64,000 bases of DNA, from assembly GCA_030765235.1 (NCBI GenBank), contig JAVCCW010000028.1, positions 24,744 through 88,743 on the forward strand. Reading direction: 5' to 3'. The stretch is from Candidatus Gorgyraea atricola (lineage in GTDB: Bacteria > Omnitrophota > Gorgyraeia > Gorgyraeales > Gorgyraeaceae). The translations under genes and the position numbers were made by a program. Positions 5,760-30,462 of the stretch are shown in pieces (position 1 is the first letter of the stretch; each line of letters starts with the position of its first letter). Under the pieces are notes generated by a model. It made no database searches. It was not told the DNA's origin and saw only the letters and a list, made by a program, of their open reading frames with translations.

Positions 5760-5760
5760 T

Positions 5761-5848: not shown

Positions 5849-5854
5849 AAAAAT

Positions 5855-6945: not shown

Positions 6946-6952
6946 CATTATC

Positions 6953-10601: not shown

Positions 10602-10634
10602 ATTGTACGGTTTTATACTGTTTTTATTGATTTG

Positions 10635-10663: not shown

Positions 10664-10701
10664 ATAATGAACCAAATATCTTTACAAAAAAAGGAGTTTT
10701 T

Positions 10702-16713: not shown

Positions 16714-16939
16714 TTAGCCTTTCGTGAATCAAACCTCAACTAAGATTAGCACACCTTCGTTACAATCCACCTTTTGTATTGATAGTGCAAAAATACCTTG
16801 ATTTTTTTAACATCTTTGGTGTAAACTTAGATTATAATGCGGATAGAATTAAATCTTGTTGACAACTTTTGTTTTATGCTGTGCGCTAAAGTTGTAAACT
16901 AGTCATGTTCGACTATTTTAAACATATACTTAAAATAGC

Positions 16940-16968
16940 TTGACTATTTTAAAGGCATAGTGTATATT
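16940..16968 (+). promoter_or_regulatory. candidate promoter for the AAA/DUF4143 ATPase gene
   Basis: TTGACT (16940-16945), a 17-nt spacer, then TATATT (16963-16968). This implies a very short leader before the ATG at 16980. Confidence 0.35.
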
Positions 16969-16979
16969 TATATTAGATC

Positions 16980-18194
16980 ATGATAGATAGAATATTGTAT
17001 AATATAGCGTTCTCAGACGAATGGGGCAGGCAGATGAGGTTTATAACCGGGCCTCGTCAATCAGGTAAGACTACCCTTGCGAAGTTGAAATTAGAACAAG
17101 AGAACACCAAAGGGTTGTATTATCTATGGGATCTTAGGTCGATCAGAAATAGATATAAAGACAATGAACTTTTTTTTACGCAGGATGCAGCATCATCAGC
17201 GCATAAATTATGGATATGCTTTGATGAAATCCATAAGATGCCCAAGTGGAAAAATATTTTAAAGGGCATATATGATTCCTCTTTTGATAATTATAATTTT
17301 ATCGTTACTGGATCAGCGAAGTTTGATATAAAAAGACGCGCGGGAGACAGCCTATCAGGAAGATATTTCACCTTCCATCTTTTTCCTTTATGTCTTTGTG
17401 AGCTGATCGGCGCCAAATCTTTCTTGATCCCGTCCTCTTCCAACGCGTCGGATTTTATTAAACAGAAAATAGAACGTAATATCAAGGCCCATGACCAATT
17501 AAATTCCTTAATAGAATATAGCGGTTTTCCCGAACCTTTTACAAGGCAGTCTAAAAAATTTCAGGCTAAATGGTCACAGGATTATTTAGACACGGTTATT
17601 AAAGAAGACATAGGAGCGCTTACAAGAATAATAGACAGGGAATATTTATATGATCTATATAAATTACTGCCAGAGATGGCCGGCAGCCCCATATCTGAGT
17701 CATCCTTAGCCTCTCATTTGGAAGTAAGTCCGCCGACTATAAAGAATTATCTTAAAAGGTTAGAAGATTTTTATTTAGCTTTTAGAATATACCCTTACTC
17801 GAAAAATATAAAGCGCTCCTTACTAAGGGCATCAAAGTGCTATCTTTACGATTGGTCGCGCGTTAAAGAACCTGGAAATAGATTTGAAAATTATGTAGCG
17901 GTTGAGTTAAAGACGCAGATTACTTTATGGAATGATGCCCTGGGCGGGGATTATCGGCTTTTTTATATTAGAAATAAAGATAAAAAAGAAATAGATTTTT
18001 TAATAACGGTACAAGACAAACCATGGCTTTTAATCGAAGCTAAATCTTCCGATAGCCCTGTTTCAAGGCATTGTTTTGACATTCAAAGGATGCTGGGCAA
18101 TATTCCTTTGGTGCAGCTTTGCATGGAAAAGGATGTTTGTTTGCTGGAGAAGAAGAATGTATATAGAATATCCGCAGATCGTTTTTTAAGTTGA
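16980..18194 (+). CDS. AAA+ ATPase with C-terminal DUF4143-like domain
   Basis: 404 aa. Walker A GPRQSGKTT and Walker B ICFDEIH. The architecture matches the widespread AAA_14/DUF4143 ATP-binding proteins. Preceded by a 266-nt AT-rich intergenic region. Confidence 0.7.
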   Translation: MIDRILYNIAFSDEWGRQMRFITGPRQSGKTTLAKLKLEQENTKGLYYLWDLRSIRNRYKDNELFFTQDAASSAHKLWICFDEIHKMPKWKNILKGIYDSSFDNYNFIVTGSAKFDIKRRAGDSLSGRYFTFHLFPLCLCELIGAKSFLIPSSSNASDFIKQKIERNIKAHDQLNSLIEYSGFPEPFTRQSKKFQAKWSQDYLDTVIKEDIGALTRIIDREYLYDLYKLLPEMAGSPISESSLASHLEVSPPTIKNYLKRLEDFYLAFRIYPYSKNIKRSLLRASKCYLYDWSRVKEPGNRFENYVAVELKTQITLWNDALGGDYRLFYIRNKDKKEIDFLITVQDKPWLLIEAKSSDSPVSRHCFDIQRMLGNIPLVQLCMEKDVCLLEKKNVYRISADRFLS

Positions 18195-18215
18195 GATCCT
18201 GCATGCACACACAAG

Positions 18216-19916
18216 ATGCTGATTAAAAAAACTATACTCTTAGGTGAAAGGCTTATCCAGAAAGGCCTGATTTCTCGTCGGGAACTAGATAAGGGTTTGA
18301 AGGAGCACGAGAAAACAGGCCTTTTTCTTGGGACTACTCTGGTAAGGCTTGGTTTTATCAGTGAAGAAGAACTGTATCCTATTCTTGCCGAGCAGTTGAA
18401 GATGGAGTATGTTAAGATAAAAGAACTTACTATTGATTCCGTGATTTTTGAAAAAGTCCCTGCCAGATATGCCTGCCATTACAGGCTCATGCCAGTAAAA
18501 TTTGATAAAGACATTTTGAGTGTTGCGGTCTCAGATCCTCTGGATATTAGGTCACTGGATGACCTGAGACTTCTTCTGGGTTGTGATGTGATCGGGTTAT
18601 TGGCAACTGAGTCAGACATAACCGAGGCCATCAGGAAATATTATGGCATTGGCGCAGAGACCATAGAAGAGATAGTGGATACGGGCGATATGGCCAAAGA
18701 TATAGAGCTGTCAGCAAAGACAACAGAGGATATAGAGGATCTTGCAGAGGACGCGTCGATTATAAAATTTGTAAATCAGGTCCTGGTGCAGGCAGTTAAA
18801 GACAGGGTCACGGATATTCATATTGAGCCGTATGAGGATGAGCTTAAGGTACGATACAGGGTGGATGGTGTTTTGTACGATATCCCAATCCCGCAGAATA
18901 TAAAATATTTTCAGGCTGCTATTGTTTCCAGGATAAAAATTATGGCGAGCCTGGATATTGCTGAGCGCAGGCTCCCGCAGGATGGGAGGATAAAGATCAA
19001 GGTAGGAGGGGAAGAACTGGATCTAAGGATATCCATACTTCCCACGCAGTTTGGAGAAAGCGTTGATATCAGGCTTTTAAGCGGCACAATGCTGTATAGC
19101 CTGAAGAATCTTGGACTTTCTTCTTCTGATCAAAAGATCATGGAAGTCCTTATCAAAAAGCCGCACGGGATCATATTTGTAACAGGACCTACAGGCAGCG
19201 GAAAGACTACTACGCTTTACGCGTGTTTATCCAAGATAAACAACAAAGACAAAAAGATCATTACCATAGAAGACCCCATAGAATATCAATTAAAGGGCGT
19301 GACGCAGATCCAGATCCACCCTCGCATTGGGCTTAGTTTCGCAGCAGGTCTGCGCTCAATGCTTCGTCATGACCCAGATATCATGATGGTGGGCGAGGTA
19401 AGGGATTTTGAAACAGCAGAGATAACTATTCGCGTTGCATTGACAGGGCATCTCGTGTTCAGTACTTTGCATACAAATGATGCTGCAGGAGGCATGGCGC
19501 GTTTGTTGGATATGGGTGTGGAGCCATATCTTGCTGCGAGTTCTGTTGAATGTTTTGCTGCGCAGCGCCTTGTAAGGCTGATCTGTCCGAAGTGTAAGAT
19601 TGAGAAAAGACCTGATAAAAAGGTCTTGAAGGAATTTGGAATAAAAGAGAAAAATATAAGTAAGGTAATTATTTTTGAGGGAAAAGGATGTGAGTCATGC
19701 AAGTTTACAGGCTACAGGGGCCGCACAGGCATATATGAGTTTTTACTTATGCATGAAGAGATCCGAGAACTAGTTCTTCACCGCTCATCAGCTGACCAGA
19801 TAAAGAAAAAGGCATTGGAGTTAGGCATGCACACGCTCCGCATGGATGGATGGGAAAAAGTGAAAAAGGGCCTGACAACGATAGACGAGGTGATCAGGGT
19901 TACAAAGGAAGACTAA
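18216..19916 (+). CDS. gspE: type II secretion/type IV pilus assembly ATPase (GspE/PilB family)
   Basis: 566 aa. N-terminal T2SSE_N domain with two MshEN-like motifs (LGERLIQKGLISRRELDKGL and LGTTLVRLGFISEEELYPILAEQL). Walker A VTGPTGSGKTTTLYA, and a C-terminal tetracysteine CPKC...CESC. Confidence 0.85.
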   Translation: MLIKKTILLGERLIQKGLISRRELDKGLKEHEKTGLFLGTTLVRLGFISEEELYPILAEQLKMEYVKIKELTIDSVIFEKVPARYACHYRLMPVKFDKDILSVAVSDPLDIRSLDDLRLLLGCDVIGLLATESDITEAIRKYYGIGAETIEEIVDTGDMAKDIELSAKTTEDIEDLAEDASIIKFVNQVLVQAVKDRVTDIHIEPYEDELKVRYRVDGVLYDIPIPQNIKYFQAAIVSRIKIMASLDIAERRLPQDGRIKIKVGGEELDLRISILPTQFGESVDIRLLSGTMLYSLKNLGLSSSDQKIMEVLIKKPHGIIFVTGPTGSGKTTTLYACLSKINNKDKKIITIEDPIEYQLKGVTQIQIHPRIGLSFAAGLRSMLRHDPDIMMVGEVRDFETAEITIRVALTGHLVFSTLHTNDAAGGMARLLDMGVEPYLAASSVECFAAQRLVRLICPKCKIEKRPDKKVLKEFGIKEKNISKVIIFEGKGCESCKFTGYRGRTGIYEFLLMHEEIRELVLHRSSADQIKKKALELGMHTLRMDGWEKVKKGLTTIDEVIRVTKED

Positions 19917-21101
19917 ATGCCTAAATTTATTTACAAAGCGAAAAAAGGGCCGAAAGAGATTATAGAGGGAAAGATCGAGGCTGAATCAGAGGCCCAGGCT
20001 GTAAAGCAGCTCATGCAGCAGGGCTATTATCCTATATGGGTTAAAGAGACCTCGACCTTAGCCTCACAAAAAAGAAGACCTGTAAAAACAAAGGACCTTG
20101 CGATTTTTACAAGGCAGCTCTCAGAGCTCTTGGATTCAGGCCTGGCCCTGTACGAGGCATTAAATATAATTGAAAATCAAATAGAGCTGCCGGGGTTAAA
20201 AGAGATCATAAGAGGTATTAGGGAAAAGGTAAGGGATGGCAATACCTTTTCTGAATCTTTGAAAGACTACCCAGGTGTTTTTTCAGAATTATATGTAAAT
20301 CTGGTTCGCTCAGGTGAGGCAGGGAGCATGCTTAGGGACGTGCTCAATAATATCGCGGATTTTCTGGAAAAAGAAGAGGATGTAAAGTCCAGGGTATTGG
20401 CTGCACTGGCATATCCAATGCTGATGCTGATCGTAGGTGCTGGTACAATATTTATTCTAACAGGATTTGTTATTCCAAAATTGGCCAATATGTTTATTGA
20501 GATGGGCGAGGTCTTACCTCTTCCCACAAGGATGCTTATTGGATTTAGTGATTTTATAAGGAGTTACTGGATATTATTAGCCATTTTTATAGGTGGCGCG
20601 ATATTTTTTGTTGCAAGGAGTAAATCCAAGGGGGCTATAGACAGGTTCAAATTAAAATTGCCTATTATTGGAGCGCTAGTAAGGGATAGTGAGCTTGCTA
20701 GATTCTCACGCACGCTTTCAATGCTTCTTAAAAATGGCGTGGCGATTCTTTCTGCATTAAAGATTACCTCTGATGTAATCGAAAATGAGGTTGTAAAAGC
20801 CGAGGCGCTTAGGATCTATAATGATGTTAGAGAAGGTTCATCGCTTGCAGCTGCGATAAAAAAGAATACCAGCTTTCCCCAGTTTATCGTAAATATGGCA
20901 ACGATAGGAGAAGAGGGTGGGATGCTGGATAAGACCTTACTTAAGGCTGCAAAGAGTTACGAGCTCGAGAGCGACAGAAAGATCAAGATACTCTCATCTC
21001 TTTTAGAGCCAGCTATAATATTGATCATGGGTGTGGTAGTAGGTTTTATCGTAATATCAATGCTTTTGCCAGTATTTCAGATATCGTTGACTGCACATTG
21101 A
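19917..21101 (+). CDS. gspF: type II secretion inner-membrane platform protein (GspF/PilC family)
   Basis: 394 aa. Duplicated T2SSF domains and three TM segments. The start codon abuts the gspE stop. Confidence 0.85.
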   Translation: MPKFIYKAKKGPKEIIEGKIEAESEAQAVKQLMQQGYYPIWVKETSTLASQKRRPVKTKDLAIFTRQLSELLDSGLALYEALNIIENQIELPGLKEIIRGIREKVRDGNTFSESLKDYPGVFSELYVNLVRSGEAGSMLRDVLNNIADFLEKEEDVKSRVLAALAYPMLMLIVGAGTIFILTGFVIPKLANMFIEMGEVLPLPTRMLIGFSDFIRSYWILLAIFIGGAIFFVARSKSKGAIDRFKLKLPIIGALVRDSELARFSRTLSMLLKNGVAILSALKITSDVIENEVVKAEALRIYNDVREGSSLAAAIKKNTSFPQFIVNMATIGEEGGMLDKTLLKAAKSYELESDRKIKILSSLLEPAIILIMGVVVGFIVISMLLPVFQISLTAH

Positions 21102-21102
21102 C

Positions 21103-21134
21103 AAATCGCGGAACTTCCGCGTAGTTCAGCGATT
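21103..21134. repeat. minimal copy of the aatcgcggaac...gttcagcgatt palindromic element, directly after the gspF stop
   Basis: aaatcgcggaacttccgcgtagttcagcgatt. The termini are shared with the element at 62511-62628, and the left terminus with 5761-5848. Confidence 0.65.
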
Positions 21135-21150
21135 ACTATAGGAGGTAATT

Positions 21151-21549
21151 ATGAGTAGTCAAAAAGGTTTTACATTGATAGAACTGATGCTTGTCGTAAT
21201 AATCATAGGGGTGCTTGCGTCATTAGTAGTGCCCAGGCTTGTGGGCCGTTCAGAAGAGGCAAGGATTGCCGCTGCAAAGGCAGATATAAATGCCAATATT
21301 TCAGTGGCGCTTGATCTATATGAGCTGGACAATGGAAAATACCCGTCTGACCTGAATGCCTTAAAGGCAAAATCAGGCTCGGACGCAAACTGGAAAGGCC
21401 CATATCTTAAAAGAAGCGTAAAAGATCCATGGGGAAATTCTTATGTATACAGAAGCCCAGGGGATCATGACACTGATTACGATCTTTATTCTTATGGCCC
21501 TGACGCTGCAGAGGGCGGAGGCGATGATATTACGAACTGGGAAGAATAA
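21151..21549 (+). CDS. gspG: type II secretion major pseudopilin GspG
   Basis: 132 aa. Prepilin leader MSSQKG|FTLIELMLVVIIIGVLASLVVPRL. The GspG-specific motif DPWGNSYVY is present. Confidence 0.85.
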   Translation: MSSQKGFTLIELMLVVIIIGVLASLVVPRLVGRSEEARIAAAKADINANISVALDLYELDNGKYPSDLNALKAKSGSDANWKGPYLKRSVKDPWGNSYVYRSPGDHDTDYDLYSYGPDAAEGGGDDITNWEE

Positions 21550-21784
21550 AAAAGGGATTTTATTGCTGGAAGTATTAGTCAGCACTACGATTCTTTCAGT
21601 TTGTTTTATATTTATAATAAGTTCTTTTACGAGATCTATAAGGGCGATAGACCTCTCAGGGGATTATTTCAGGCTAGGCCTGGTTCTTGAGCAGGAATTA
21701 TACGAGGCCCTTGATTGCGAATTAAAACAAGGTCTTCCGGATTTTGACAAAATTTATGAAGAAAAAAGGGTTTACCCTGATTGA
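21524..21784 (+). CDS. minor pseudopilin (GspH/GspI-like)
   Basis: Start chosen at MILRTGKNKKG|ILLLEVLVSTTIL, a prepilin-like leader plus hydrophobic helix. Overlaps the gspG 3' end by 26 nt. The ORF track's upstream extension is rejected. Confidence 0.5.
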   Translation: MILRTGKNKKGILLLEVLVSTTILSVCFIFIISSFTRSIRAIDLSGDYFRLGLVLEQELYEALDCELKQGLPDFDKIYEEKRVYPD

Positions 21785-22325
21785 GCTTATAATTAGTGTA
21801 ACAATATTTAGCATAGTAATCGTTTCAGTTTATGGCGTGTTTTATATGGGTTTAAAGACATGGAGGCGCGCTCAAGGAGAAAAATCCCTGCAAGAGATAC
21901 GCATGGCATTTTTAAAGATGGAAAAGGAACTGAAAAATACATTCTTCTTTTCTGACACCAAATTTAAAGGCACGTCAAAAGACATGTCTTTTCCTTTAGT
22001 TGTCTCAGATAAAGTTTATACAATTACCTATAGCGTGAACGAAAATGAAGATAGCGGACTAAGTCAAATTCTGAGAACAAAAGACGAAGAAGAAAAAGAG
22101 ATATCGCCTCCAATGAAGTCTATTAAATTTCAATATGCTGCTATGGCCGAAGATATCGAATGGAAGGATAATTGGAATGAAGATGACCTTCCTTCTGGCA
22201 TAAGGATTTCTTTAGAGGATGAGGAGACTTGCCCCGTGCCTTTTGCAGATAGAGCAAAAAGCAAAAGGCATGGGGTTTACAGCAAGACCATTTTTCTTAA
22301 ACAGCCGGATTTTAAGATACAATGA
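21756..22325 (+). CDS. minor pseudopilin (GspJ-like)
   Basis: MKKKG|FTLIELIISVTIFSIVIVSVYGVF prepilin N-terminus. An in-frame TTG at 21744 is an alternative start. About 190 aa, consistent with GspJ. Confidence 0.55.
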   Translation: MKKKGFTLIELIISVTIFSIVIVSVYGVFYMGLKTWRRAQGEKSLQEIRMAFLKMEKELKNTFFFSDTKFKGTSKDMSFPLVVSDKVYTITYSVNENEDSGLSQILRTKDEEEKEISPPMKSIKFQYAAMAEDIEWKDNWNEDDLPSGIRISLEDEETCPVPFADRAKSKRHGVYSKTIFLKQPDFKIQ

Positions 22326-23110
22326 AGAAAAAAGGAAGCATCTTGATATTTACATTGTGGGTGTTAATTATTTTAGCCATCCTTAGTGTGATTATTTCTC
22401 GTCGGGCATCTACTGATGTAAGGCTGGCAAAATACGAGGCTGATAGCATAAAAGGCACTTATTTTGCAAAGGCAGGTGTCATGAAGATGCTTGTAGAACT
22501 TACTAAAGATAAAAATGGGTACGACAGCTTAGATGAGGACTGGAATAGAGGTAAGGATAATCCAAAGGAATTGACATTGAAAAATGATACAGTACTCTAT
22601 GGCGCATCTGATGAAGCAGCCAGATTAAATCTGAATCATTGCACAATAGATAACCTTAAGAACCTGGGACTTGAAGATGATATTGCTAATAATATATTAA
22701 AGTATAGGACGGATCATAATAAGGACTTTGAGTTTATGGAAGAGTTGTTTCTGGTAGAGGCTATGACGCGAGAGGTGTATAATACAATTAAGGATCTAGT
22801 TACGATTTATAGAGGAGATGAGGTCAAGGTAAACATAAATACTGCATCTTCAGATGTACTGATGGCAGTTGTGGGCGATCCAGTTTTAGTACAGGCGATA
22901 GTAGATTATAGAAATAACGATGATATGTTTACAAATACTAGTGATATCAGCATGATACAAGGATTGGATCCAGCTATGTTTAACTGGGAGTCTAATATCT
23001 TTCGCATATGGGCAGAGGCTGTTCTGGCAGATGATACTGATGCAACAAAAACTGCTGAAGCTATAGTCGATAGGACATCAGGAAAGATCTATCATTGGAG
23101 GGAAGATTGA
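22322..23110 (+). CDS. gspK: GspK-like minor pseudopilin
   Basis: 262 aa. MKKKGSILIFTLWVLIILAILSV N-terminal TM helix without the processing Gly/Phe, as in GspK. Gene order is G-H/I-J-K. Confidence 0.6.
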   Translation: MKKKGSILIFTLWVLIILAILSVIISRRASTDVRLAKYEADSIKGTYFAKAGVMKMLVELTKDKNGYDSLDEDWNRGKDNPKELTLKNDTVLYGASDEAARLNLNHCTIDNLKNLGLEDDIANNILKYRTDHNKDFEFMEELFLVEAMTREVYNTIKDLVTIYRGDEVKVNINTASSDVLMAVVGDPVLVQAIVDYRNNDDMFTNTSDISMIQGLDPAMFNWESNIFRIWAEAVLADDTDATKTAEAIVDRTSGKIYHWRED

Positions 23111-24225
23111 TAATCATACCGCGGCATCAAGTCTTTGTTAAGTTCGTGGACGTACCATCTCTAGACGAATCTGAGATAGCGAAGATGGCAGAATTTCAGA
23201 TCGTGAAGGAGATCCCGCATCCAAAAGAAGATTTGATAATCAGCTATAGAAATCTTGACTCCCATAGAGAAGGTTTCTCATCACTCATGCTAACAGTTGT
23301 TACCAGAGATGTGATAGAGGAAAAGATTGACGAGGCTGCTCATGTAGATAGCATAAGACTATATAGTGAGCTATTATATCTATTCCTGTTAAAAGAGAAT
23401 GTGGTAAGCCAGGATAAGGTAAGTCTTATTATTCATGTTAGAGAAGAAGACTCAGAGATAATGATAATAGATCGCTCACGGCTGATATTTTCCAGAGGTT
23501 TTAAGGATAGGCACGCATTTTTAGGTGAGATAGAGCGTTCAATTTTAGCCTATAAAAGAGAAAAGGCAAATCCTGAGATAGAAGATATAATTATAGTACG
23601 CCATTCAGGTGTGAATATCGACGATAAAATAGAAAAGATAAAGGCACAGTTTACGATTCCTGTAAGGTTTCATGAATATAGCCAGGATTTGAGTCTGCTT
23701 GATCTGGGGCCTCAGATCGACCTTATGCCAAAGGAGATCAGTCATAAAAGACGTGGTTTAGTAAAGAGGCGCGAGTCCATAGTTACATATTCTCTTGTAG
23801 GAGTGGTTATTGTATTATTTTCTATTTTACTTTATTCAAAGATTCACCAGAAAAATAAAATTATAGGCGCGATTTCTACAAAGGTAGAAGAAGTGGACGC
23901 AAGGATAGAAGGTTTGGACGAGATCCTTAAAAAGACCGAGGCTGTAAAGGATCATTTAGAAAAGGGTAGTTTTATTATAAAGGTTTTAGAGGATTTTTAT
24001 CTAACAGTCCCCCAAGATATATCAATTTCAGGCTTAGATTATGATGGAAAGGATAATATTTTCTATAAAGGCAATTCAAAGGCCATGGCTACTCTCCTAA
24101 ATTACGTAAAAAGACTGGAGAATTCCAAGTATTTCAGCAAGGTGGAAGTTAAATATGCTACAAAGAAAAAGGTAAAGGGAGAAGAGATAGTAGATTTTAA
24201 TCTAAGGTGTCAATTAAAGCCATGA
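23095..24225 (+). CDS. GspL-like (cytoplasmic actin-like domain + TM + periplasmic domain) assembly protein
   Basis: 376 aa. A single central TM helix (VTYSLVGVVIVLFSILLYSKI) separates an about 240-aa N-terminal domain from an about 115-aa C-terminal domain, the GspL/PilM-PilN topology. The TTG start is uncertain. Confidence 0.5.
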   Translation: MEGRLIIIPRHQVFVKFVDVPSLDESEIAKMAEFQIVKEIPHPKEDLIISYRNLDSHREGFSSLMLTVVTRDVIEEKIDEAAHVDSIRLYSELLYLFLLKENVVSQDKVSLIIHVREEDSEIMIIDRSRLIFSRGFKDRHAFLGEIERSILAYKREKANPEIEDIIIVRHSGVNIDDKIEKIKAQFTIPVRFHEYSQDLSLLDLGPQIDLMPKEISHKRRGLVKRRESIVTYSLVGVVIVLFSILLYSKIHQKNKIIGAISTKVEEVDARIEGLDEILKKTEAVKDHLEKGSFIIKVLEDFYLTVPQDISISGLDYDGKDNIFYKGNSKAMATLLNYVKRLENSKYFSKVEVKYATKKKVKGEEIVDFNLRCQLKP

Positions 24226-24722
24226 ATATTTCCAAGCGAGAAAAATATATATCTATTATTGCTACTGGAGTTGTCGTATTGGCGCTGGCGTATAATTTTT
24301 TAATAGATCCACTTTTCAAAAAATGGCATAATTTTAATAATGATATAATAAAAAATGAAATTGCCTTAAAGAAAGGCTTGAAATTGCTGGAGAATAGAAA
24401 TGATATTATCAAAGAGTATAATAGCTATGCATCCACTACCAGGACGCTTTCAAGGATTTTGAGTTACATAGAAAAACATGCCATTTCAACAGGTGTAAAA
24501 ACAGCCAATATAAAGCCAAGGCCAGTTGTTGAAAAAGGCTATTATAAGGAATATGTCATTGAGCTGCAGGTAGAAGGCACATTTTCCGCTATCAACAAGT
24601 TCGCATCTAAGATCATAGAACCCCCTTTGCTAATCACCATAAAAAAATTCGACCTAAGAACCCCCACAGACACTCCATCCACCCTAAAAGGTACCCTAAT
24701 TCTCTCCAAACCCCTAATTTAA
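24222..24722 (+). CDS. GspM/PilO-like bitopic membrane protein
   Basis: ATGA overlap with the gspL-like stop. N-terminal TM helix ISIIATGVVVLALAYNFLI, then a periplasmic domain. Assigned from its position after gspL. Confidence 0.45.
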   Translation: MNISKREKYISIIATGVVVLALAYNFLIDPLFKKWHNFNNDIIKNEIALKKGLKLLENRNDIIKEYNSYASTTRTLSRILSYIEKHAISTGVKTANIKPRPVVEKGYYKEYVIELQVEGTFSAINKFASKIIEPPLLITIKKFDLRTPTDTPSTLKGTLILSKPLI

Positions 24723-24778
24723 CTTTACACTTAACCAAGGCTTAAGTGTAAAGTAGGCCAGGTTTAAACCTGGCCTAC
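24722..24778. repeat. two adjacent perfect palindromes after gspM: actttacacttaa-ccaaggc-ttaagtgtaaagt and gtaggccaggtttaaacctggcctac
   Basis: The second is the 26-nt core of the 8207-8246 palindrome. Confidence 0.75.
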
Positions 24779-24798
24779 AGAGAAGTTAGGAGTTGACC

Positions 24799-24872
24799 TT
24801 GACAATAAGGAAATCGTGGGGCATACTTACTCTCTATATGGAGAGTGAACTCTCACTCTCTACTTGGAGAGC
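24799..24872 (+). promoter_or_regulatory. candidate promoter (TTGACA-17-CATACT) plus two tandem CTCTC-N6-GAGAG inverted-repeat boxes upstream of the MerR-like gene
   Basis: ttgaca at 24799-24804. Box 1 is tctctatatggagag, and box 2 is tctctacttggagag, 10 nt further. Both precede the ATG at 24874. Confidence 0.4.
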
Positions 24873-24873
24873 T

Positions 24874-25110
24874 ATGAATAAGATATATTTGATTAAAGAT
24901 CTGGCAAGGCTAAGTGGACACACAGTGCACACTGTGAAGTATTACCTTAATATAGGTGTCATAAAGGAGATTGGCAGGAGTCCAGAGACTAACTTTAGAT
25001 ACTTTGATGATGTAGTGCTTGAGAGATTGAAAAAGGTGAGGGATTTGCGCAGACAGAATAAAGGCCTTGCAGAGATAAAGGAGTTACTCGGGTCAGATGT
25101 CGTATTATAA
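24874..25110 (+). CDS. small MerR-family HTH transcriptional regulator embedded in the T2SS locus
   Basis: 78 aa. IKDLARLSGHTVHTVKYYLNIGVI...FRYFDDVVLERLKKVRDLRRQNKGLAEIKELL has the MerR HTH and coiled-coil pattern. There is no effector domain. Confidence 0.6.
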   Translation: MNKIYLIKDLARLSGHTVHTVKYYLNIGVIKEIGRSPETNFRYFDDVVLERLKKVRDLRRQNKGLAEIKELLGSDVVL

Positions 25111-25924
25111 TATTCTCAATCTCAATAAAGAGCCATTTTCAACAAGTCCAGATCCTTATTTTTTATATCCATCCACGTCTCATCAGCAGGCACTGCAGAG
25201 GCTTGAGATCGCGATCAGGCTTAAGAGAGGGCTGAGCGTGATTTTAGGAGACGTGGGGATCGGGAAGACCACGCTTGCCCGCGCGCTTGTCCAGAATCTA
25301 AATCAGGATCACACTATAGTTACTCACATGATCTTTGATCCTACCTATGATTCAGAGTTTCAGTTTGTTGTTTACCTGGCAAAACTTTTTGGCATAAGAC
25401 CAAATTTTCGTTCAGCCCTTGATTATAAAGAGGCCATAGAGAGGTTTTTATTTAAAAAATGCGTGGATGAGGAAAATATTGTCGTGCTTATTATTGACGA
25501 GGCTCAGAAATTGAGCGCATCCAGCCTGGAGATATTGCGCACGCTCCTGAACTACGAAACTAATGAATACAAACTTCTCCAGCTCGTGATTATAGGTCAA
25601 ACAGAGCTTCTGCCTAAATTAAAAAGGATAAGAAATTTTTCAGACAGGGTTTCGCTGAAGTATATGATCAACCCGTTTGATATAAATGAGACCAGGGCCA
25701 TGATACAGTTTAGACTGAAGCAGGCTGGTTATAATTCAGGAAAAGGTCTTTTTAGTAATAATGCAATGGATATGATCTACCAGTATACACAGGGCTATCC
25801 GCGGCAGATAGCAAATATCTGTCATCTCGCATTAGAAGAATTTTTAATGCAAGAGAGGTCCGTGGTGGATACTGATTTAATAGACGAGGTAATAGAACGC
25901 GATAGAAAGGTGGATCTGGATTAA
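25097..25924 (+). CDS. gspA: GspA/ExeA-like AAA ATPase (secretin-assembly factor), cytoplasmic ATPase part only
   Basis: 275 aa. ...QQALQRLEIAIRLKRGLSVILGDVGIGKTTLARAL carries Walker A, and VLIIDEAQ is Walker B. The ExeA family signature is present. Confidence 0.7.
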   Translation: MSYYNILNLNKEPFSTSPDPYFLYPSTSHQQALQRLEIAIRLKRGLSVILGDVGIGKTTLARALVQNLNQDHTIVTHMIFDPTYDSEFQFVVYLAKLFGIRPNFRSALDYKEAIERFLFKKCVDEENIVVLIIDEAQKLSASSLEILRTLLNYETNEYKLLQLVIIGQTELLPKLKRIRNFSDRVSLKYMINPFDINETRAMIQFRLKQAGYNSGKGLFSNNAMDMIYQYTQGYPRQIANICHLALEEFLMQERSVVDTDLIDEVIERDRKVDLD

Positions 25925-26409
25925 TGGCTGGTATGACTTCAGAAGGGAAACTTCTTAATCTCATAAAAGATGCGCAGAAAAAACGTAAGCTCAGGAAGGA
26001 TTTAAAGGTGTTTACGAAAATAAACATTGTCTTGATCGTTCTTATATTGGTTATACTTATTGTGTTTTTAGTGGATTTTCTCACCCCTGACCAAGAGAGG
26101 TCTAAGCTCATGGTAGAGCTGCCAAAGGAAGATGGAGCAGTTTTGCCTCTAGTAGAGGACGTGGATATAGAGGAAGAGATAGTGATTGAAGAAAAATCTC
26201 TTGCCTCAAAAGAGGAATTAGTAAAGGACTTGGCTGTGCTGGGCATCATCACAGGTGATAGCGACCAGGTTATAATAGAAGACAAGAGTGCAGGAAAGAC
26301 CTTTTTTCTTTACAAAGACGATAGTTTCGGAGATTTTAAGATTATCGAAATAAAAGATAATGGCGTGACCTTAGATTATAAAGGTGAAAAAATAGAATTG
26401 AATATGTAA
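25924..26409 (+). CDS. bitopic membrane protein, GspB/GspC-like partner of GspA
   Basis: 161 aa. Basic cytoplasmic N-terminus, then a TM helix (INIVLIVLILVILIVFLV), an acidic periplasmic linker and a small beta-rich C-domain. TAATG overlap with gspA. Homology is not firmly established. Confidence 0.4.
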   Translation: MAGMTSEGKLLNLIKDAQKKRKLRKDLKVFTKINIVLIVLILVILIVFLVDFLTPDQERSKLMVELPKEDGAVLPLVEDVDIEEEIVIEEKSLASKEELVKDLAVLGIITGDSDQVIIEDKSAGKTFFLYKDDSFGDFKIIEIKDNGVTLDYKGEKIELNM

Positions 26410-26424
26410 AAGGGGAGGTTTCCG

Positions 26425-28386
26425 ATGATAAAAAGAGTTATTGTATCTATAGTTATATTTTCGATATCTATTTTTTCTGCAGTGCCGATGGTCTTGCCGC
26501 AGTATGAAGATCCAGAATTAATATCGCTGGATCTTAAAGGTATGGAGATACGCGATGTTCTTAAGATCCTTTCGCAGAAGAGTGGGCTTAACATGGTAGC
26601 TGATAAGGATGTGAAAGGAACAGTATCGGTTTACGTGAAGGATGTGGATGTAATGGATGCCCTGGATATAGTAGTTTCCACAAATGACCTTGCTTATGAA
26701 GAGAAAGGCAGCCTTATCAGGGTCATGACTGCCAGGAAATACGAAAAGATGAATGGCGCCAGGTTTAAAGACAGGACCAAGACAGAAATAGTTAAGCTTA
26801 ATTATGCCAAGGCCTCCACTGTCGCAGTGACCTTGACAAAGATGAAAACAAAGCTAGGCAAGGTCATTGCGGATGATGCCTCGAACACATTAGTCTTAAT
26901 AGACAATTCTAAAAACATTGAAAGAATGAAGCAGGCTATTTTAGAAATAGATATCCTGCTGGTTACTGAGATTTTCTCTCTTGATTATGCAAAGGCAGAT
27001 TCCATAAAAGAGAAGTTAGAAAAGATGCTTTCCAAGGATATGGGGACTATACGATTTGATGAAAGGACAAACAAGGTAGTGGTTAAAGACACCCAGGAAA
27101 AGATCAATGAGATAAAGAAGGTGGTAGAGGCATTTGATGAGAAGACGCGAGAAGTGCTCATAGATGCAAAGATAATACAGGTGACACTCTCGGATAAACA
27201 TAGCTATGGAATAGATTGGGATAGCATTGCTACGCTGGGAAACATAACAATAGAGGCGACTACACATCTTACTACCAGCTTGGCAGGCACTACTCCGAAT
27301 GTATTGACTATAGCCAAGAAAGGTGGCACTCATTTAAATGTGTTAAGACTTCTTGAGACATTTGGCAAGACTAATGTCCTGTCGCGCCCGAGAATTACTG
27401 TTGCTGACAGGGAAGAGGCAAAAATCCTGGTTGGCGCCAAAGAGGTGTATGTGACGAGTGAAGTGACAACCACATCAGGAGGTACGTATCATACGACAGA
27501 TAATGTCCAGTTCGTTGATGTTGGTGTGACATTAGGCGTGACACCTGAGATAAATAGCGACGGTTATGTTAGAATGAAGATAAAGCCAGAAGTGTCTAAC
27601 ACTGATGCTACAAAGACAGTCATGCTGACAAATCCCGATGGATCAACCAGGACAGTTGTCCCTTATGTTACTACGTCAGAGGCAGAGACAACAGTGCTGA
27701 TCAAAGACAATACCACACTTATATTGGGTGGCCTGATGAAGGACACAGTTACAGAATATAATGACAAAGTGCCTATTCTTGGAGACATTCCTATTTTGGG
27801 GAAACTGTTTTCCACAAAAGGAAAGAGCAAAGAAAAAACAGAACTCGTAATATTTATCACACCTCATATCATAGACCCTGGTAAATCAACAAAAGAAGCA
27901 GAGTTTTATGCTAAAGAGTGGAAAAAGAAGACAGAAGACGCGAAGATAGGGAAATCAGAAAAGCCAGTTAAGAAAGAGAAAAAATCTGCCAAAGTTAAAG
28001 CAAAACGAAAACCAGAACCTAAGAAGAAAAAAGAATGGACACCTGTTTTTAGCAACAAAAAACCTGAAAAGGAAAAGGTGGTAAAACAGGAAAAGAAGGA
28101 AGTGGTTAAAACACCCTATGAGTCATACTACCTTGCTATAAGAAAAGAGATAATTGGTGCAGCCCAGAGGCAGGATATGGAAGGGTTTACAGGAGATGTT
28201 GAACTGCAATTCACGCTGGACAGAGATGGCTTTTTAACAAAAGGCCCTATTGTCCTGAATAAGCCTGATTTGAAACTTGTGCGAGCAGCTGTAAATTGCG
28301 TAAAGCTTACTTCGCCATTTTTTCCTTTTCCAAAGAGCTTAGACAAGGAAGAGGCAGAATTTTATATAATAGTACGGTATGAATGA
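26425..28386 (+). CDS. gspD: T2SS secretin GspD with C-terminal Lys-rich linker and TonB-C-like domain
   Basis: 653 aa. Signal peptide, N0/N1 domains, and the secretin signature VPILGDIPILGKLFSTKGKSKEKTELVIFITPHII. Then a KKEKKSAKVKAKRKPEPKKKKEW low-complexity linker and a YESYYLAIRKEIIGAAQRQDMEGFTGDVELQFTLDRDGFL... domain resembling TonB_C. Confidence 0.85.
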   Translation: MIKRVIVSIVIFSISIFSAVPMVLPQYEDPELISLDLKGMEIRDVLKILSQKSGLNMVADKDVKGTVSVYVKDVDVMDALDIVVSTNDLAYEEKGSLIRVMTARKYEKMNGARFKDRTKTEIVKLNYAKASTVAVTLTKMKTKLGKVIADDASNTLVLIDNSKNIERMKQAILEIDILLVTEIFSLDYAKADSIKEKLEKMLSKDMGTIRFDERTNKVVVKDTQEKINEIKKVVEAFDEKTREVLIDAKIIQVTLSDKHSYGIDWDSIATLGNITIEATTHLTTSLAGTTPNVLTIAKKGGTHLNVLRLLETFGKTNVLSRPRITVADREEAKILVGAKEVYVTSEVTTTSGGTYHTTDNVQFVDVGVTLGVTPEINSDGYVRMKIKPEVSNTDATKTVMLTNPDGSTRTVVPYVTTSEAETTVLIKDNTTLILGGLMKDTVTEYNDKVPILGDIPILGKLFSTKGKSKEKTELVIFITPHIIDPGKSTKEAEFYAKEWKKKTEDAKIGKSEKPVKKEKKSAKVKAKRKPEPKKKKEWTPVFSNKKPEKEKVVKQEKKEVVKTPYESYYLAIRKEIIGAAQRQDMEGFTGDVELQFTLDRDGFLTKGPIVLNKPDLKLVRAAVNCVKLTSPFFPFPKSLDKEEAEFYIIVRYE

Positions 28387-28394
28387 GATTATCC

Positions 28395-28422
28395 TTGACG
28401 CATAGGAAATAATATATAGAAT
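28395..28422 (+). promoter_or_regulatory. candidate promoter for the acd-etfBA operon
   Basis: TTGACG (28395-28400), a 16-nt spacer, then TAGAAT (28417-28422). An AGGAGG RBS precedes the ATG at 28455. Confidence 0.4.
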
Positions 28423-28454
28423 ATAAGAAATATGTCTAAAATAAGGAGGAGATA

Positions 28455-29606
28455 ATGGATTATTTGTTGACTGAAGAACAGATAATGATTCGCGATTTGG
28501 CAAGGCAGATAGCCAAAGAAAAGATCAAACCTGTTGCGGCAAAGTATGACGAAGAGGGCATATTCCCGTGGGATATCGTGAAGATCCTGGCGGATAGCGA
28601 TCTCTGCGGCATATACATCGAGGAAAAATACGGCGGCATAGGAGGCGGTTCCATGGAGCTCGTGCTCGCGACAGAGGAGCTGTCCAAGGCATGCGGCGGT
28701 ATTTCACTTGCGCTGGCAGCTACGGCGCTCGGGACATACCCTATTATTTTGTTTGGCACAGACGCTCAGAAGGAAAAATATCTTCCTGATATCGCTAAGG
28801 GCAAGAAGCTCGCTGCATTTGCTCTTACAGAGGCAGGCGCTGGGAGTGACGCAGCAGCAGTCGCGACCACTGCGGAGAAAAAAGGCGATCATTATATATT
28901 GAATGGCACAAAACAATGGATTACAAATGGCGGCGAGGCCGAGGTCTATACTGTAGTTGCCTCAGTTGACAGAAGAAAAGGCGCGCGCGGCGCAGCGACA
29001 TTTATTGTTGAAAAGGGTACGCCGGGTTTTGAATTTGGAAAAAAAGAAGATAAGATGGGTATACGCGCGTCTGCTACAAGAGAGCTTGTTTTTACAGATT
29101 GTAAGATCCCCAAAGAGAATCTGCTTGGCAAAGAGGGCGGTGGATTTATCGTTGCGATGAAGACATTCGATCAGTCCAGGCCAGGCGTGGCAGCACAGGC
29201 ACTTGGCATTGCGCAGGGAGCATTGGATCTTACTGTTGAATATGTAAAAGGGAGAAAGCAATTTGGTAAATCAGTATCTTCTTTTCAGGGCGTGCAGTTT
29301 ATGCTCGCTGACATAGCGACACAGATAGAGGCAGCCAGGGCATTGATATACGCGACAGCAAGGATGCTGGATAGCGGAGCCAAGAAGGTTGCCAAGGATT
29401 CCGCGATAGCAAAGCTCTTTGCCTCAGACATGGCCATGAAGGTCACGGTTGACTGCGTGCAGCTATTCGGCGGCTACGGATATATGCGCGATTACCCGAT
29501 AGAAAAATACATGCGCGACGCAAAGATCACGCAGATATACGAGGGTACAAACCAGATACAGCGCAGCGTCATCGCATTAAATCTACTAAAGGAGCGCACC
29601 ACCTAA
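28455..29606 (+). CDS. acyl-CoA dehydrogenase (short-chain/butyryl-CoA dehydrogenase family)
   Basis: 383 aa. LTEEQIMIRDLARQIAKEKIKP, FALTEAGAGSDAAA, and a C-terminal YEGTNQIQR. Confidence 0.85.
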   Translation: MDYLLTEEQIMIRDLARQIAKEKIKPVAAKYDEEGIFPWDIVKILADSDLCGIYIEEKYGGIGGGSMELVLATEELSKACGGISLALAATALGTYPIILFGTDAQKEKYLPDIAKGKKLAAFALTEAGAGSDAAAVATTAEKKGDHYILNGTKQWITNGGEAEVYTVVASVDRRKGARGAATFIVEKGTPGFEFGKKEDKMGIRASATRELVFTDCKIPKENLLGKEGGGFIVAMKTFDQSRPGVAAQALGIAQGALDLTVEYVKGRKQFGKSVSSFQGVQFMLADIATQIEAARALIYATARMLDSGAKKVAKDSAIAKLFASDMAMKVTVDCVQLFGGYGYMRDYPIEKYMRDAKITQIYEGTNQIQRSVIALNLLKERTT

Positions 29607-29610
29607 AGAT

Positions 29611-30462
29611 ATGAATATTATCGTCTGCATAAAACAGGTCCCGGATACAACAGATATTAGAATAGATCCTGAGACGAATACGCTTATCAGGAGCGGAGTG
29701 GCAAGTATTATAAATCCATTCGATATGTACGCGATTGAAGAAGGGATCCGTCTTAAGGAGAAGTTTGGCGGTAAAGTCACGATTCTGACAATGGGACCGC
29801 CGCAGGCAGAAGATGCGTTGCGCGAGGCGATCTCGCTTGGCGCAGATGAGGCGATCCTTGTTTCAGATCGCGCATTTGCGGGGAGCGACACTTGGGCAAC
29901 GAGTTACACCCTATCAAAGGCGATCCATAAGATAGGCGACTGCGATCTTATAATCTGCGGAAAGCAGGCAATCGACGGTGATACTGCTCAGGTCGGGCCT
30001 GGCATTTCAGCGCACCTCGATATACCACAGGTCGCGTATGTTAAAAAGATAGAAGAGGTAAATTTAGGGACAAGGGACCCCATACGAGAATCAAAGATTT
30101 CGTACGGGGCAGGCAAGGGACAAGGGACAAGTAGTGGCTATATGCGTACCGAGAGGATGACAGAGGAAGGCTATGAGATCATTGAATCGCCTCTGCCGTG
30201 CCTGATTACTGTTGTAAAAGAGATAAATGAGCCAAGGCTCCCTTCTTTAAAGGGGAAGATGAAGGCCAAAAAGATTGAAATAAAAAAGTGGGGCGCAAAA
30301 GATCTCGATGTGGATCCTGATCTGATCGGACTCAATGGCTCACCAACAAAGGTGGTAAGGATATTCACGCCGCCCCCCAGAGAAAAAGGTCAGATGCTAG
30401 AAGGAGACGCAAAAGAGGTAAGCGAGAAATTAGTCGAGTTGTTAAAGAAGGATATTTTATAA
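29611..30462 (+). CDS. etfB: electron transfer flavoprotein beta subunit (carries an in-frame repeat insertion at 30067-30138)
   Basis: 283 aa. MNIIVCIKQVPDT, and AILVSDRAFAGSDTWATSYTLSKAI. The ORF is uninterrupted through the repeat. Confidence 0.85.
   Translation: MNIIVCIKQVPDTTDIRIDPETNTLIRSGVASIINPFDMYAIEEGIRLKEKFGGKVTILTMGPPQAEDALREAISLGADEAILVSDRAFAGSDTWATSYTLSKAIHKIGDCDLIICGKQAIDGDTAQVGPGISAHLDIPQVAYVKKIEEVNLGTRDPIRESKISYGAGKGQGTSSGYMRTERMTEEGYEIIESPLPCLITVVKEINEPRLPSLKGKMKAKKIEIKKWGAKDLDVDPDLIGLNGSPTKVVRIFTPPPREKGQMLEGDAKEVSEKLVELLKKDIL
30067..30138. repeat. palindromic mini-repeat copy inside the etfB coding sequence, in-frame (different frame from the fabD copy)
   Basis: gggacaagggaccccatacgagaatcaaagatttcgtacggggcaggcaagggacaagggacaagtag, translated RDPIRESKISYGAGKGQGTSS. 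Confidence 0.8.

Follow-up and report, generated by a model that had tools for sequence, protein, structure and literature searches.

We analyzed a 64,000-nucleotide stretch of DNA from Candidatus Gorgyraea atricola, a member of the Omnitrophota (contig JAVCCW010000028.1, positions 24,744 to 88,743; hereafter the window), and found that its region 18216–28386 holds 12 genes, all on the plus strand, for the components of a type IV-filament machine. The gene cluster is real and is best classed as type II secretion system (T2SS)-like, and the machine would probably work most like a T2SS, although in its family membership it is mixed, a mosaic outside the strict definitions of the T2SS, the type IVa pilus (T4aP) and the MSH pilus. 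The arrangement of the locus further suggests that it is divided into two transcription units, the second of which would begin with a gene for a truncated MerR-like protein and drive the outer-membrane half of the machine.

Gene content and layout of the locus

Components were assigned with hidden Markov models (HMMs) from Pfam and NCBIfam, the latter with equivalog cutoffs. The major pseudopilin, in which the first-pass annotation had read the motif DPWGNSYVY as diagnostic of GspG, passed the GspG equivalog cutoff (TIGR01710, 132.3 bits against 88.85) and also matched PF08334 (103.8 bits). Its eight best matches in the PDB were all GspG proteins (54–87 bits), whereas type IV pilins matched it in the N-terminal helix alone (~32 bits). 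Across the pilin set, the HMM check that had been set beforehand returned GspG above its cutoff and GspI, GspJ and GspK weakly, with no assignment to PilA, PilV, PilW or PilX, which upholds the earlier preference for a T2SS-type over a PilA-type system. The ORFs of the locus likewise included no PilA-type pilin, no PilT and no PilY1.

Reading of the open reading frames (ORFs) showed that gene junctions overlap or span at most 49 nucleotides, with the single exception of a 151-nucleotide gap between the PilO-like and MerR-like genes (Table 1). The first-pass annotation gave the coordinates and gene order correctly, and its description of co-oriented genes holds, as does that of short or overlapping junctions except at this gap. 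Its census needs amending: where it counted three minor pseudopilins plus a GspK-like protein, the window has two small ones, I-like and J-like, plus the K-like protein, and where it called the locus complete, GspH and GspO are missing. A GspH-like gene is absent from the window locus and present in more distant relatives (for example L018; such handles denote individual loci), and no Peptidase_A24 prepilin peptidase was found with Pfam among all ORFs of at least 150 amino acids in the 64-kb window.

Table 1. Coordinates within the window of the locus components, associated DNA elements and upstream genes.
Feature	Coordinates	Strand	Basis
Assembly ATPase, GspE/PilB family; MshEN domain	18216–19916	+	HMM
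GspF-type polytopic inner-membrane platform protein	19917–21101	+	HMM, 3 transmembrane segments
Major pseudopilin GspG; prepilin motif G/FTLIE; DPWGNSYVY calcium-loop region	21151–21549	+	HMM, PDB matches
Short GspI-like minor pseudopilin, G/ILLLE	21524–21784 (likely start; ORF opens 21443)	+	Weak HMM, relatives, sequence
GspJ-like minor pseudopilin, G/FTLIE	21744–22325	+	N_methyl; gspJ below cutoff
GspK-like minor pseudopilin, without Glu5; helix-hairpin-helix alpha-domain	22322–23110	+	HMM below cutoff
Bitopic fusion, PilM-like (cytoplasmic) and PilN-like (periplasmic)	23095–24225	+	HMM, hydropathy
PilO-family bitopic protein (GspM-equivalent)	24207–24722	+	PF04350, hydropathy
Two adjacent perfect inverted repeats	24722–24778	.	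Sequence inspection
Predicted internal promoter of the secretin module, TTGACA-17-CATACT	24799–24827	+	Promoter scan, conserved position
Two palindrome copies, putative operator	24828–24872	.	Only such sites in window
78-amino-acid truncated MerR-family winged-HTH protein, putative autoregulator	24874–25110 (ORF opens 24793)	+	MerR_1
Cytoplasmic GspA/ExeA-family AAA+ ATPase, 275 amino acids	25097–25924	+	AAA_22, Walker motifs
161-amino-acid bitopic HR-type protein (GspB/GspC/PilP class)	25924–26409	+	Hydropathy, AF2, Foldseek
Secretin with C-terminal TonB_C	26425–28386	+	HMM
Sigma-70-type promoter, perfect TTGACA-17-TATAAT	10635–10663	+	12/12 matches
2003-amino-acid S8 subtilase	10702–16713	+	HMM, hydropathy
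AAA_14/DUF4143 ATPase with HTH-like segment; not a secretion component	16980–18194	+	HMM

Assembly ATPase, tip proteins and platform

The assembly ATPase scored 626.6 bits against the NCBIfam GspE equivalog, just under the cutoff of 630.25, and 600.1 bits against PilB; its Pfam matches were T2SSE (434 bits) and MshEN (67 bits). Residues 9–60 carry two tandem MshE-type motifs for binding of cyclic di-GMP (c-di-GMP; NF053729, 57.8 bits, cutoff 38). For the polytopic protein GspF was the best-scoring NCBIfam family (373.6 bits, cutoff 424; PilC, 305 bits), and the protein contains two T2SSF domains (Pfam) and three transmembrane segments (hydropathy). The I-like protein reached 18 bits, below cutoff, with weak matches to gspI and ComGE in NCBIfam, and its gene is kept in relatives. 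The J-like protein has an N_methyl match and scored 34.9 bits against gspJ, again below cutoff, and the K-like protein scored 66.4 bits against GspK (NF037980, cutoff 130).

Two platform proteins follow. One is a fusion with a transmembrane segment at residues 228–246 and a C-terminal PilN match (35.5 bits, Pfam), whose family profile matched Myxococcus PilM (115 bits), as well as PilN, and did not match GspL; the other matched the PilO family PF04350 (40.8 bits). The first-pass labels L-like and M-like therefore do not hold by sequence, which gives PilM, PilN and PilO and no GspL or GspM match; the architecture of the first protein, a bitopic PilM–PilN fusion, is GspL-like.

Two side observations concern c-di-GMP. 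When the window ATPase was compared by tblastn with related loci, the match started only at query residue 46–68 in six of them (L015, L035, L044, L048, L050 and L064), and GspE in some lineages may be shorter, without the N-terminal c-di-GMP motif. The sole large minus-strand gene of the window, lying 7 kb downstream of the locus, encodes a GAF-GGDEF diguanylate cyclase (35532–36653).

A conserved promoter and palindrome upstream of the MerR-like gene

The MerR-like protein matched MerR_1 with 48.4 bits (cutoff 21.6), and its profile matched the N-termini of MerR, MtaN, BmrR, CadR and CueR. It ends after helix 4 and so has neither a dimerization coiled coil nor an effector domain. The family is small and uniform, with 23 clusters at E ≤ 1e-10 among 1.84 billion representatives and lengths of ~75–105 amino acids, and the gene overlaps that of the following ATPase (here called A) by 14 nucleotides (25097 versus 25110). 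In some distant relatives, P0252 (271 amino acids), P0265 (610 amino acids) and P0275 (417 amino acids), the truncated MerR helix-turn-helix (HTH) is present in three to five copies, arranged in tandem in one polypeptide.

Inside the 151-nucleotide gap lies a near-consensus promoter that is followed at once by two palindromes, TACTCTCTATATGGAGAGT at 24828–24846 and CACTCTCTACTTGGAGAGC at approximately 24854–24872. The palindrome block abuts the −10 box, and its second copy stops 2 nucleotides short of the MerR ATG. The same layout, TTGACA-17-(T/C)ATACT followed by one or two copies of TACTCTCTA-NN-TAGAGAGTA, emerged from 35 aligned Omnitrophota promoter regions, in 32 of which the promoter position is conserved. 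We searched 1.10 Mb of related loci for the palindrome pattern with at most one mismatch and obtained 45 matches, 43 of which lie no more than 200 nucleotides upstream of a MerR start (in 32 of the 36 loci with the gene), while the remaining two fall shortly after pilO in loci with a truncated or masked copy of the MerR gene at that place in the record. The pattern occurs at these two sites only in the 64-kb window and is absent from the loci that have no MerR gene (L039, L041, L046, L071 and L080). No conserved motif was found upstream of gspE across loci, and the palindrome is specific to the MerR promoter. The half-sites vary together with the recognition helix: where the residue aligned with window His19 is H or Y (33 loci), the half-sites are CTCTCT/AGAGAG, and where it is D or E (four loci), they are CTCCCT/AGGGAG.

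The first-pass annotation had described the MerR-like gene as embedded between gspM and gspA. The gene is indeed there, but it is not merely embedded, since it appears from this arrangement to begin a second unit with a promoter and palindromes of its own. Autorepression of the merR-A-HR-secretin genes by occlusion of the −10/+1 region would be the most economical reading; because the palindrome sits at −10/+1 of a promoter with a 17-nucleotide spacer, occlusion is likelier than activation by DNA untwisting.

Further perfect inverted repeats lie immediately behind the pilO stop codon, ahead of this promoter. They consist of ACTTTACACTTAA-N7-TTAAGTGTAAAGT and a 26-bp palindrome, GTAGGCCAGGTTTAAACCTGGCCTAC (GTAGGCCAGGTTT followed by AAACCTGGCCTAC), and neither is followed by a run of T. 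L003, L006, L013, L044 and L050 have hairpins of a related kind (ACATTTAA...TTAAATGT and GTAGGnnnnnnTTTAAAnnnnnnCCTAC) close to their MerR promoters, in some cases downstream of the putative operator. Such repeats may serve as a terminator, as an insulator between the units or as a second binding site.

The GspA-like ATPase, the HR protein and the secretin

Pfam and hydropathy analysis of A (275 amino acids) found no transmembrane segment, no periplasmic domain and no match to the peptidoglycan-binding family PF01471, in keeping with the earlier statement that ExeA is represented by its cytoplasmic ATPase half only. Such ATPase-only GspA proteins exist in Alteromonas and Pseudoalteromonas (PMC9239104). 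A matched AAA_22 (73 bits) and, below cutoff, TIGR03015 (193.9 bits against 324.5); Walker A (GDVGIGKT) and Walker B (LIIDEA) motifs can be read in its sequence, and its orthologs go under the names ‘ExeA family protein’ or ‘general secretion pathway protein A’ (K02450-type) in annotation sources. A homolog search with A gave Omnitrophota sequences only. The closest folds to its AlphaFold2 (AF2) model (mean predicted local distance difference test, pLDDT, 86.9) were Orc1/Cdc6, TnsC and MuB. There is no structure of an ExeA cytoplasmic domain in the PDB, and therefore this resemblance may come from nothing more than membership of the same AAA_22 clade; the model also keeps open a DNA-linked role that A would exercise jointly with the HTH protein.

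The 161-amino-acid protein encoded next has a transmembrane segment at residues 35–53 (hydropathy) and no Pfam match. Its 110 detected homologs are all unnamed and likewise lack Pfam domains, and the few with an organism label are from Omnitrophota. In the family alignment the cytoplasmic N-terminus is conserved, a membrane helix and a variable acidic linker come next, and the C-terminus forms a second conserved block, which AF2 modeled as six strands (residues 103–160; C-terminal pLDDT ~90). The top eight Foldseek matches in the PDB were GspC-HR, PilP, LspC and PulC-HR, with 3oss_C, a GspC HR domain in complex with GspD, at TM-score 0.77 and rmsd 2.0 and 6hcg_e at TM-score 0.72. The small bitopic partner proposed by the first-pass annotation thus exists, with a predicted fold of the GspC/GspB/PilP type and with neither a PDZ nor a coiled-coil domain. 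On the strength of this model, we would assign it to the HR-domain proteins, whose members dock with the N0 ring of secretins. The family profile did not match GspB or GspC of Escherichia coli K-12 in hhalign, a weak test with single-sequence templates, and one for which K-12 GspB has no HR domain to offer (PMC9239104).

GspB/OutB is a protein with a transmembrane segment and an HR domain that binds secretin N0 and whose gene usually adjoins gspA, and homologs have been reported in gamma- and beta-proteobacteria only (PMC9239104). By analogy, the order A-HR-secretin fits a GspA-GspB-GspD module. Because no further HR protein is encoded, the 161-amino-acid protein probably doubles as a connector of the GspC/PilP type.

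The secretin comprises a signal peptide, an N0/STN domain, two Secretin_N domains and the secretin core, without AMIN. Its scores for PilQ (266.4 bits), GspD (258.3 bits) and MshL (205.5 bits, cutoff 250) were all below the respective cutoffs, and its best PDB match was the GspD structure 5wln (142 bits). The extra C-terminal domain noted earlier is TonB_C (residues 584–652; PF03544, 25.7 bits against a cutoff of 24.6, or 29.6 bits with the C-terminus in isolation; NCBIfam tonB_Cterm, 19.1 bits, below its cutoff of 27.1), and TonB_C was matched individually in 12 of 13 orthologous secretin C-termini. Between the secretin core and TonB_C runs a Lys/Pro/Glu-rich stretch, KSEKPVKKEKKSAKVKAKRKPEPKKKKE...KPEKEKVVKQEKKEVVK (27900–28150, residues ~495–575), similar to the rigid periplasm-spanning spacer of TonB.

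Conservation of the locus in Omnitrophota

We scanned for the ATPase with one genome per species and obtained 80 loci, mostly titled Candidatus Omnitrophota and many Planctomycetia/Planctomycetales, with a best ATPase match at 94% identity, and compared all window proteins with these loci by tblastn. About 40 loci retain the order E-F-G-(H)-I-J-K-MN-O-MerR-A-HR-secretin(TonB_C), and GspE identity among them falls as low as 58%. MerR (49–81%) and A (56–78%) are more similar to their window counterparts than are the pseudopilins and platform proteins (20–55%). The usual neighbors are fabF directly upstream and genes for an acyl-CoA dehydrogenase (ACAD) and etfBA downstream. Given this conserved order and these usual neighbors, the locus belongs to the vertically inherited core and occupies a fixed position in the chromosome, and the parts that the first-pass annotation called unusual add-ons are standard ones, present in the same order in the ~40 Omnitrophota loci. 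We considered a mobile island and rejected it, as the same fabF ... ACAD/etf position recurs in many divergent genomes and the composition is unremarkable.

In more distant relatives the I, K and PilMN proteins are longer and a GspH-like gene is present, the window lineage having a trimmed version. In L039, L041 and L071, A occurs without MerR and still stands beside the HR protein and the secretin; MerR was never found without A in the loci examined. The metagenome-assembled genome JAHIPS01 carries two versions of the operon (L004 and L009, with GspE 94% and 80% identical to that of the window), which are either paralogous systems or the product of a mixed bin.

The MerR/A pair in a second phylum

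A search of a representative library with the MerR-like protein provided a view across phyla and identified annotated homologs at 45–47% identity in Candidatus Marinimicrobia (L083, L085–L087). There the order is MerR (77–78 amino acids), an AAA_22 ATPase, PilM (834 amino acids), PilO, a 173-amino-acid protein with a weak T2SSB (GspB) match and the secretin, after which the cluster continues with a PilT-like ATPase, a response regulator, a prepilin peptidase and an MshEN-PilB ATPase. The AAA_22 ATPase is 48% identical to A over its full length, and its gene overlaps that of MerR by 14 nucleotides, as in the window. A promoter, TTGACA-17-TATACT, lies ~150 nucleotides upstream of MerR, and the Omnitrophota palindrome is absent. 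Since the same overlapping pair occurs in a second phylum, the association of HTH protein and ATPase is not a local accident, and the comparison suggests an ancient two-gene unit of secretin-containing type IV-filament systems. A gene for a response-regulator-GGDEF protein stands just upstream of the Marinimicrobia clusters (L085, 5593–6399).

The adjacent subtilase as candidate cargo

The giant subtilase upstream of the locus begins with a signal peptide that includes a lipobox-like VFLAC; its further parts are a fervidolysin-type prodomain, a beta-helix, three PKD domains, a dockerin and He_PIG immunoglobulin (Ig) domains. PulA, a classical T2SS substrate, is also a lipoprotein. The subtilase promoter, 39 nucleotides upstream of the start, is the only perfect site in 10300–29000. 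The 267-nucleotide gap after the subtilase contains promoter-like sites and no terminator-like hairpin, and a scan with a terminator consensus found none between the subtilase and gspE and none inside the locus. Together, the subtilase and AAA_14/DUF4143 genes (10702–18194) form an insertion between fabF and gspE that takes this form in the window only; upstream of gspE the AAA_14/DUF4143 gene was found only in the window and L003. A promoter-like TTGACA-17-AATATT (18076–18104) within its 3' end, which L003 shares, may be the one that drives gspE.

Genes for S8 subtilases are found repeatedly beside gspE, on its upstream side in L011, L013 and L020 and on its downstream side in L049. In L038, a distant Omnitrophota operon, a 1167-amino-acid S8 subtilase (3496–6999) is encoded between gspE and gspF; an anchor or signal at its N-terminus is joined by an I9-like prodomain, a region rich in repeats and, at the C-terminus, an Ig-like domain. 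In the closest relatives, with 94% GspE identity (L002, 2143–2556; also L004), the start of gspE lies within the last 11 nucleotides of a gene whose 137-amino-acid product carries a signal peptide and a domain like the N-terminal propeptide (I9) of subtilisin; a gene for a 655-amino-acid Ig-repeat protein precedes it. The segment upstream of gspE is a variable slot for secreted proteins.

The recurrence of S8 subtilases and the propeptide-like gene at gspE point to a possible functional link, and the signal peptide with its lipobox and the extracellular-type domains favor the suggestion of the first-pass annotation that the subtilase is a plausible cargo. Adjacency itself does not carry this suggestion, as it results from a lineage-specific insertion in which the AAA_14/DUF4143 gene intervenes. 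From these sequence features, it is nearly an even call whether the subtilase is a cargo or surface-anchored substrate in this lineage, with the balance slightly on the doubtful side.

Comparison with known systems

With the T2SS of Proteobacteria (Gsp/Pul/Eps/Xcp), the locus shares GspG with its calcium-loop motif, a GspF-type protein, a GspE-type core, a GspI/J/K-like tip set, a secretin with N0 and Secretin_N and no AMIN, a bitopic connector with a predicted HR fold, and a co-oriented operon with no retraction ATPase. It differs in lacking GspH, GspN, GspO, a pilotin and the PDZ or coiled-coil part of GspC, in having a PilM–PilN fusion and PilO at the GspL and GspM positions, in the MshEN c-di-GMP module of its ATPase, in the TonB-like linker and TonB_C on its secretin, and in the internal promoter, putative operator and MerR-type gene that split the operon. 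The GspA–GspB pair (ExeAB/EpsAB, OutB) is matched by an AAA+ gene followed by one for a bitopic HR-fold protein, with the pair adjoining the secretin gene. Here, however, the pair lies outside Proteobacteria, its ATPase has no transmembrane segment or PF01471 domain, a translationally coupled MerR-type gene stands ahead of it, and the HR protein is the sole one and so may also do the job of GspC.

Similarity to the MSHA pilus extends to an MshE-type ATPase with a c-di-GMP-binding N-terminus, a short cytoplasmic ExeA-like ATPase (putatively MshM-like), PilM/N/O-like genes grouped with the secretin, and the lack of a prepilin peptidase in the locus (PMC6668835). Mandatory MSH genes are mshA, mshE, mshG and mshL, together with mshM (Denise et al., 2019, PMC6668835); the locus has GspG and not MshA, no MshN (TPR) and no MshB/C/D/O/P/Q set, its secretin falls short of the MshL cutoff, and its gene order is another. 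PilM, PilN and PilO homologs, a PilB-like full-length ATPase and a PilQ-related secretin are shared with the T4aP (PilBCMNOPQ), from which the locus is set apart by the absence of a PilA-type pilin, PilT/U, PilY1, a PilP lipoprotein and AMIN, and by the fusion of PilM and PilN. As for the MerR family, the N-terminal winged HTH and a 20-bp palindrome (9-2-9) of MerR-dimer size beside the protein's own gene are typical, whereas the end after helix 4, the position of the palindrome at −10/+1 and not inside a 19–20-nucleotide spacer, and the constant coupling to an AAA+ gene are not.

Weighing the alternatives

Several observations weigh against parts of the T2SS-like reading. The GspE, GspF, GspI, GspJ and GspK proteins all fall under their NCBIfam equivalog cutoffs, the window has neither GspH nor the prepilin peptidase, the platform proteins match PilM/PilN/PilO rather than GspL/GspM, and the secretin scores slightly higher for PilQ than for GspD. 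The ATPase has the full-length PilB/MshE architecture, and solved PilB beats solved GspE as its match in the PDB (528 versus 418 bits, partly a length effect). For A, no similarity to E. coli K-12 GspA extends beyond Walker A, and its nearest solved folds are DNA-binding AAA+ proteins. The homologous MerR-A-HR-secretin module of Marinimicrobia is clustered with a PilT-like ATPase, and a TXSScan-based survey reported ‘type-4a pili’ as near-universal in Omnitrophota (PMC10066038). Against the subtilase as cargo stand its own perfect promoter, the gene that intervenes between it and gspE, and its absence from this position in most relatives.

Alternatively, the locus could build a true surface pilus of the T4aP or MSH type, for attachment to a host or prey or for motility, with the GspG-like subunit as the major pilin of the lineage. 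Such a pilus would suit the platform, the MshE-like c-di-GMP motif of the ATPase, the PilT-like ATPase beside the orthologous Marinimicrobia module and a phylum reported to be rich in ‘T4aP’ and to consist of probable epibionts or predators (PMC10066038), and the short ExeA/MshM-like ATPase, the MshE-type ATPase and the absence of a peptidase from the locus are MSH features (PMC6668835). It is nevertheless rather unlikely, as the major subunit passes the GspG cutoff and type IV pilins reach only its N-terminal helix (32 versus 87 bits), a GspI/J/K-type tip set is present, and GspF outscores PilC by ~70 bits. The locus also has no PilT, PilY1, MshA-type pilin or MshN, its secretin is without AMIN domains, and its connector is bitopic like GspC/GspB and not a PilP lipoprotein. 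A pseudopilus for DNA uptake, in which the helix-hairpin-helix tip pilin K would bind DNA, is suggested by the higher Pfam score of K for HHH_3 (ComEA-type, 75 bits) than for T2SSK (a weak 23 bits), by its score of 47.3 bits for the ComEA HhH repeat (cutoff 53.1) and by weak ComGC/GE/GF matches of the small pseudopilins. The ComG matches are, however, confined to the N-terminal helix, GspK (NF037980) covers the same region of K with 66 bits, and neither ComEC nor DprA appeared among the window ORFs scanned against Pfam. The alpha-domain of GspK is itself HhH-like, and T2SSK is grouped with HhH families. We therefore regard a role in competence as very improbable, and the T2SS-like classification is the one we retain.

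For the promoter element, the truncated MerR lacks the usual dimerization helix, the palindrome lies downstream of a promoter with a 17-nucleotide spacer, unlike classical MerR operators, and the D/E-to-CCC co-variation may reflect one or two evolutionary events, all of which count against autorepression at a DNA operator. The palindromes might instead act at the RNA level, as 5'-untranslated-region hairpins that mask the ribosome-binding site of MerR or stabilize the transcript, with the MerR-like protein regulating something else. The second copy could form such a hairpin, given that no Shine-Dalgarno-like sequence other than its right arm, GGAGAG, is present, that it ends 2 nucleotides before the ATG, and that changes occur in both arms, as a hairpin would also need. 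Yet in nearly all loci the first palindrome has its left arm on or directly against the −10 hexamer and is therefore not fully transcribed, which favors a DNA operator. The sequence itself is kept, beyond pairing, across loci whose proteins are only 20–60% identical; the palindrome is found only where MerR is present and co-varies with a recognition-helix residue; and an Rfam scan of 10000–30000 gave no match. Regulation by RNA hairpins thus seems improbable.

A different possibility is that the MerR-like protein and A together form a split HTH-plus-AAA+ switch on DNA, similar in kind to Orc1/Cdc6 or to TnsC/MuB with a specificity partner, that controls transcription of the secretin module, A not being an assembly factor of the ExeA type. 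This would accord with the 14-nucleotide overlap conserved in two phyla, with the absence of MerR without A, with a truncated MerR that has no dimerization helix of its own, with an A that has no transmembrane or periplasmic part and is unlike E. coli GspA beyond Walker A, and with the likeness of A to Orc1/Cdc6, TnsC and MuB, AAA+ proteins that polymerize on DNA. Against it, A stands beside the HR protein and secretin without MerR in three loci (L039, L041 and L071), its orthologs are annotated as ExeA family/GspA, the side-by-side placement of its gene and a gspB-like one agrees with the GspAB pairing in the literature (PMC9239104), the fold likeness may be a clade effect with no ExeA cytoplasmic domain in the PDB for comparison, and A could dock on the HR protein at the conserved cytoplasmic N-terminus of the latter. 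We consider this switch unlikely. A related proposal, equally conjectural in our view, would make the truncated MerR and A a hitherto unrecognized two-gene module, common to secretin-containing type IV-filament systems in at least two phyla and acting as an ATP-dependent feedback switch, in which the HTH reads the 20-bp palindrome while the ATPase contacts the cytoplasmic tail of the secretin-bound HR/GspB-like protein, thereby coupling pore assembly to its own transcription. If true, the long-unexplained cytoplasmic AAA+ domain of GspA/ExeA/MshM would gain an ancestral DNA-linked role, which would fit its structural similarity to Orc1/Cdc6, TnsC and MuB.

Proposed mechanism and its context

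Under the T2SS-like reading with autorepression, we propose that unit 1 (18216–24722) would supply the ATPase, GspF, GspG, the GspI-J-K tip set, PilM-PilN and PilO. A short GspG pseudopilus on the GspF/PilMN/PilO platform, assembled at the expense of ATP by the GspE/PilB-family ATPase and probably gated by c-di-GMP, would push Sec-exported proteins through the secretin. Unit 2 (24799–28386) would supply the truncated MerR, the GspA/ExeA-type ATPase, translationally coupled to it through the 14-nucleotide overlap, the HR protein and the secretin. The HR protein would dock on the secretin N0 ring and tie the secretin to the inner membrane, as GspC or PilP does, and would carry out with the GspA-like ATPase the secretin-assembly job of GspAB. 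The MerR-like protein would bind the palindromes, repress its own promoter and thereby limit expression of the secretin module.

Omnitrophota are uncultured, mostly ultra-small and probably host-dependent, with giant secreted proteins thought to attack other cells, and published surveys label their filament systems inconsistently, as T4aP or as ‘T2SS-like’. Loci of both kinds have already been mentioned in the literature; in the literature searched, however, nothing came up on the division into two units, on the element made of promoter, palindrome and MerR gene, on the 161-amino-acid protein as an HR protein or on the cross-phylum pair of MerR and GspA-like proteins. The anatomy set out here combines T2SS pseudopilins with a platform and ATPase of the T4aP/MSH type, an intermediate form relevant to the origin of T2SS and MSH from T4aP, and it would extend the GspA–GspB secretin-assembly pair beyond Proteobacteria. 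With a cis-element, a candidate binding protein and co-variation of residue and base in hand, regulation of the secretin module becomes testable without culturing, and the S8 subtilases recurring beside or inside these operons are candidate cargo. A T2SS-like locus described beside giant genes (West-Roberts et al.) is probably different, as it has rcpC and a rotamase and looks Tad-related.

Other features of the window

Nearly all genes of the window lie on the plus strand, cumulative GC skew rises monotonically and purines are in excess, which is consistent with one replichore and a strong leading-strand gene bias. Upstream of the subtilase, the window contains two fabF paralogs, at 6953–8191 and 9366–10601.

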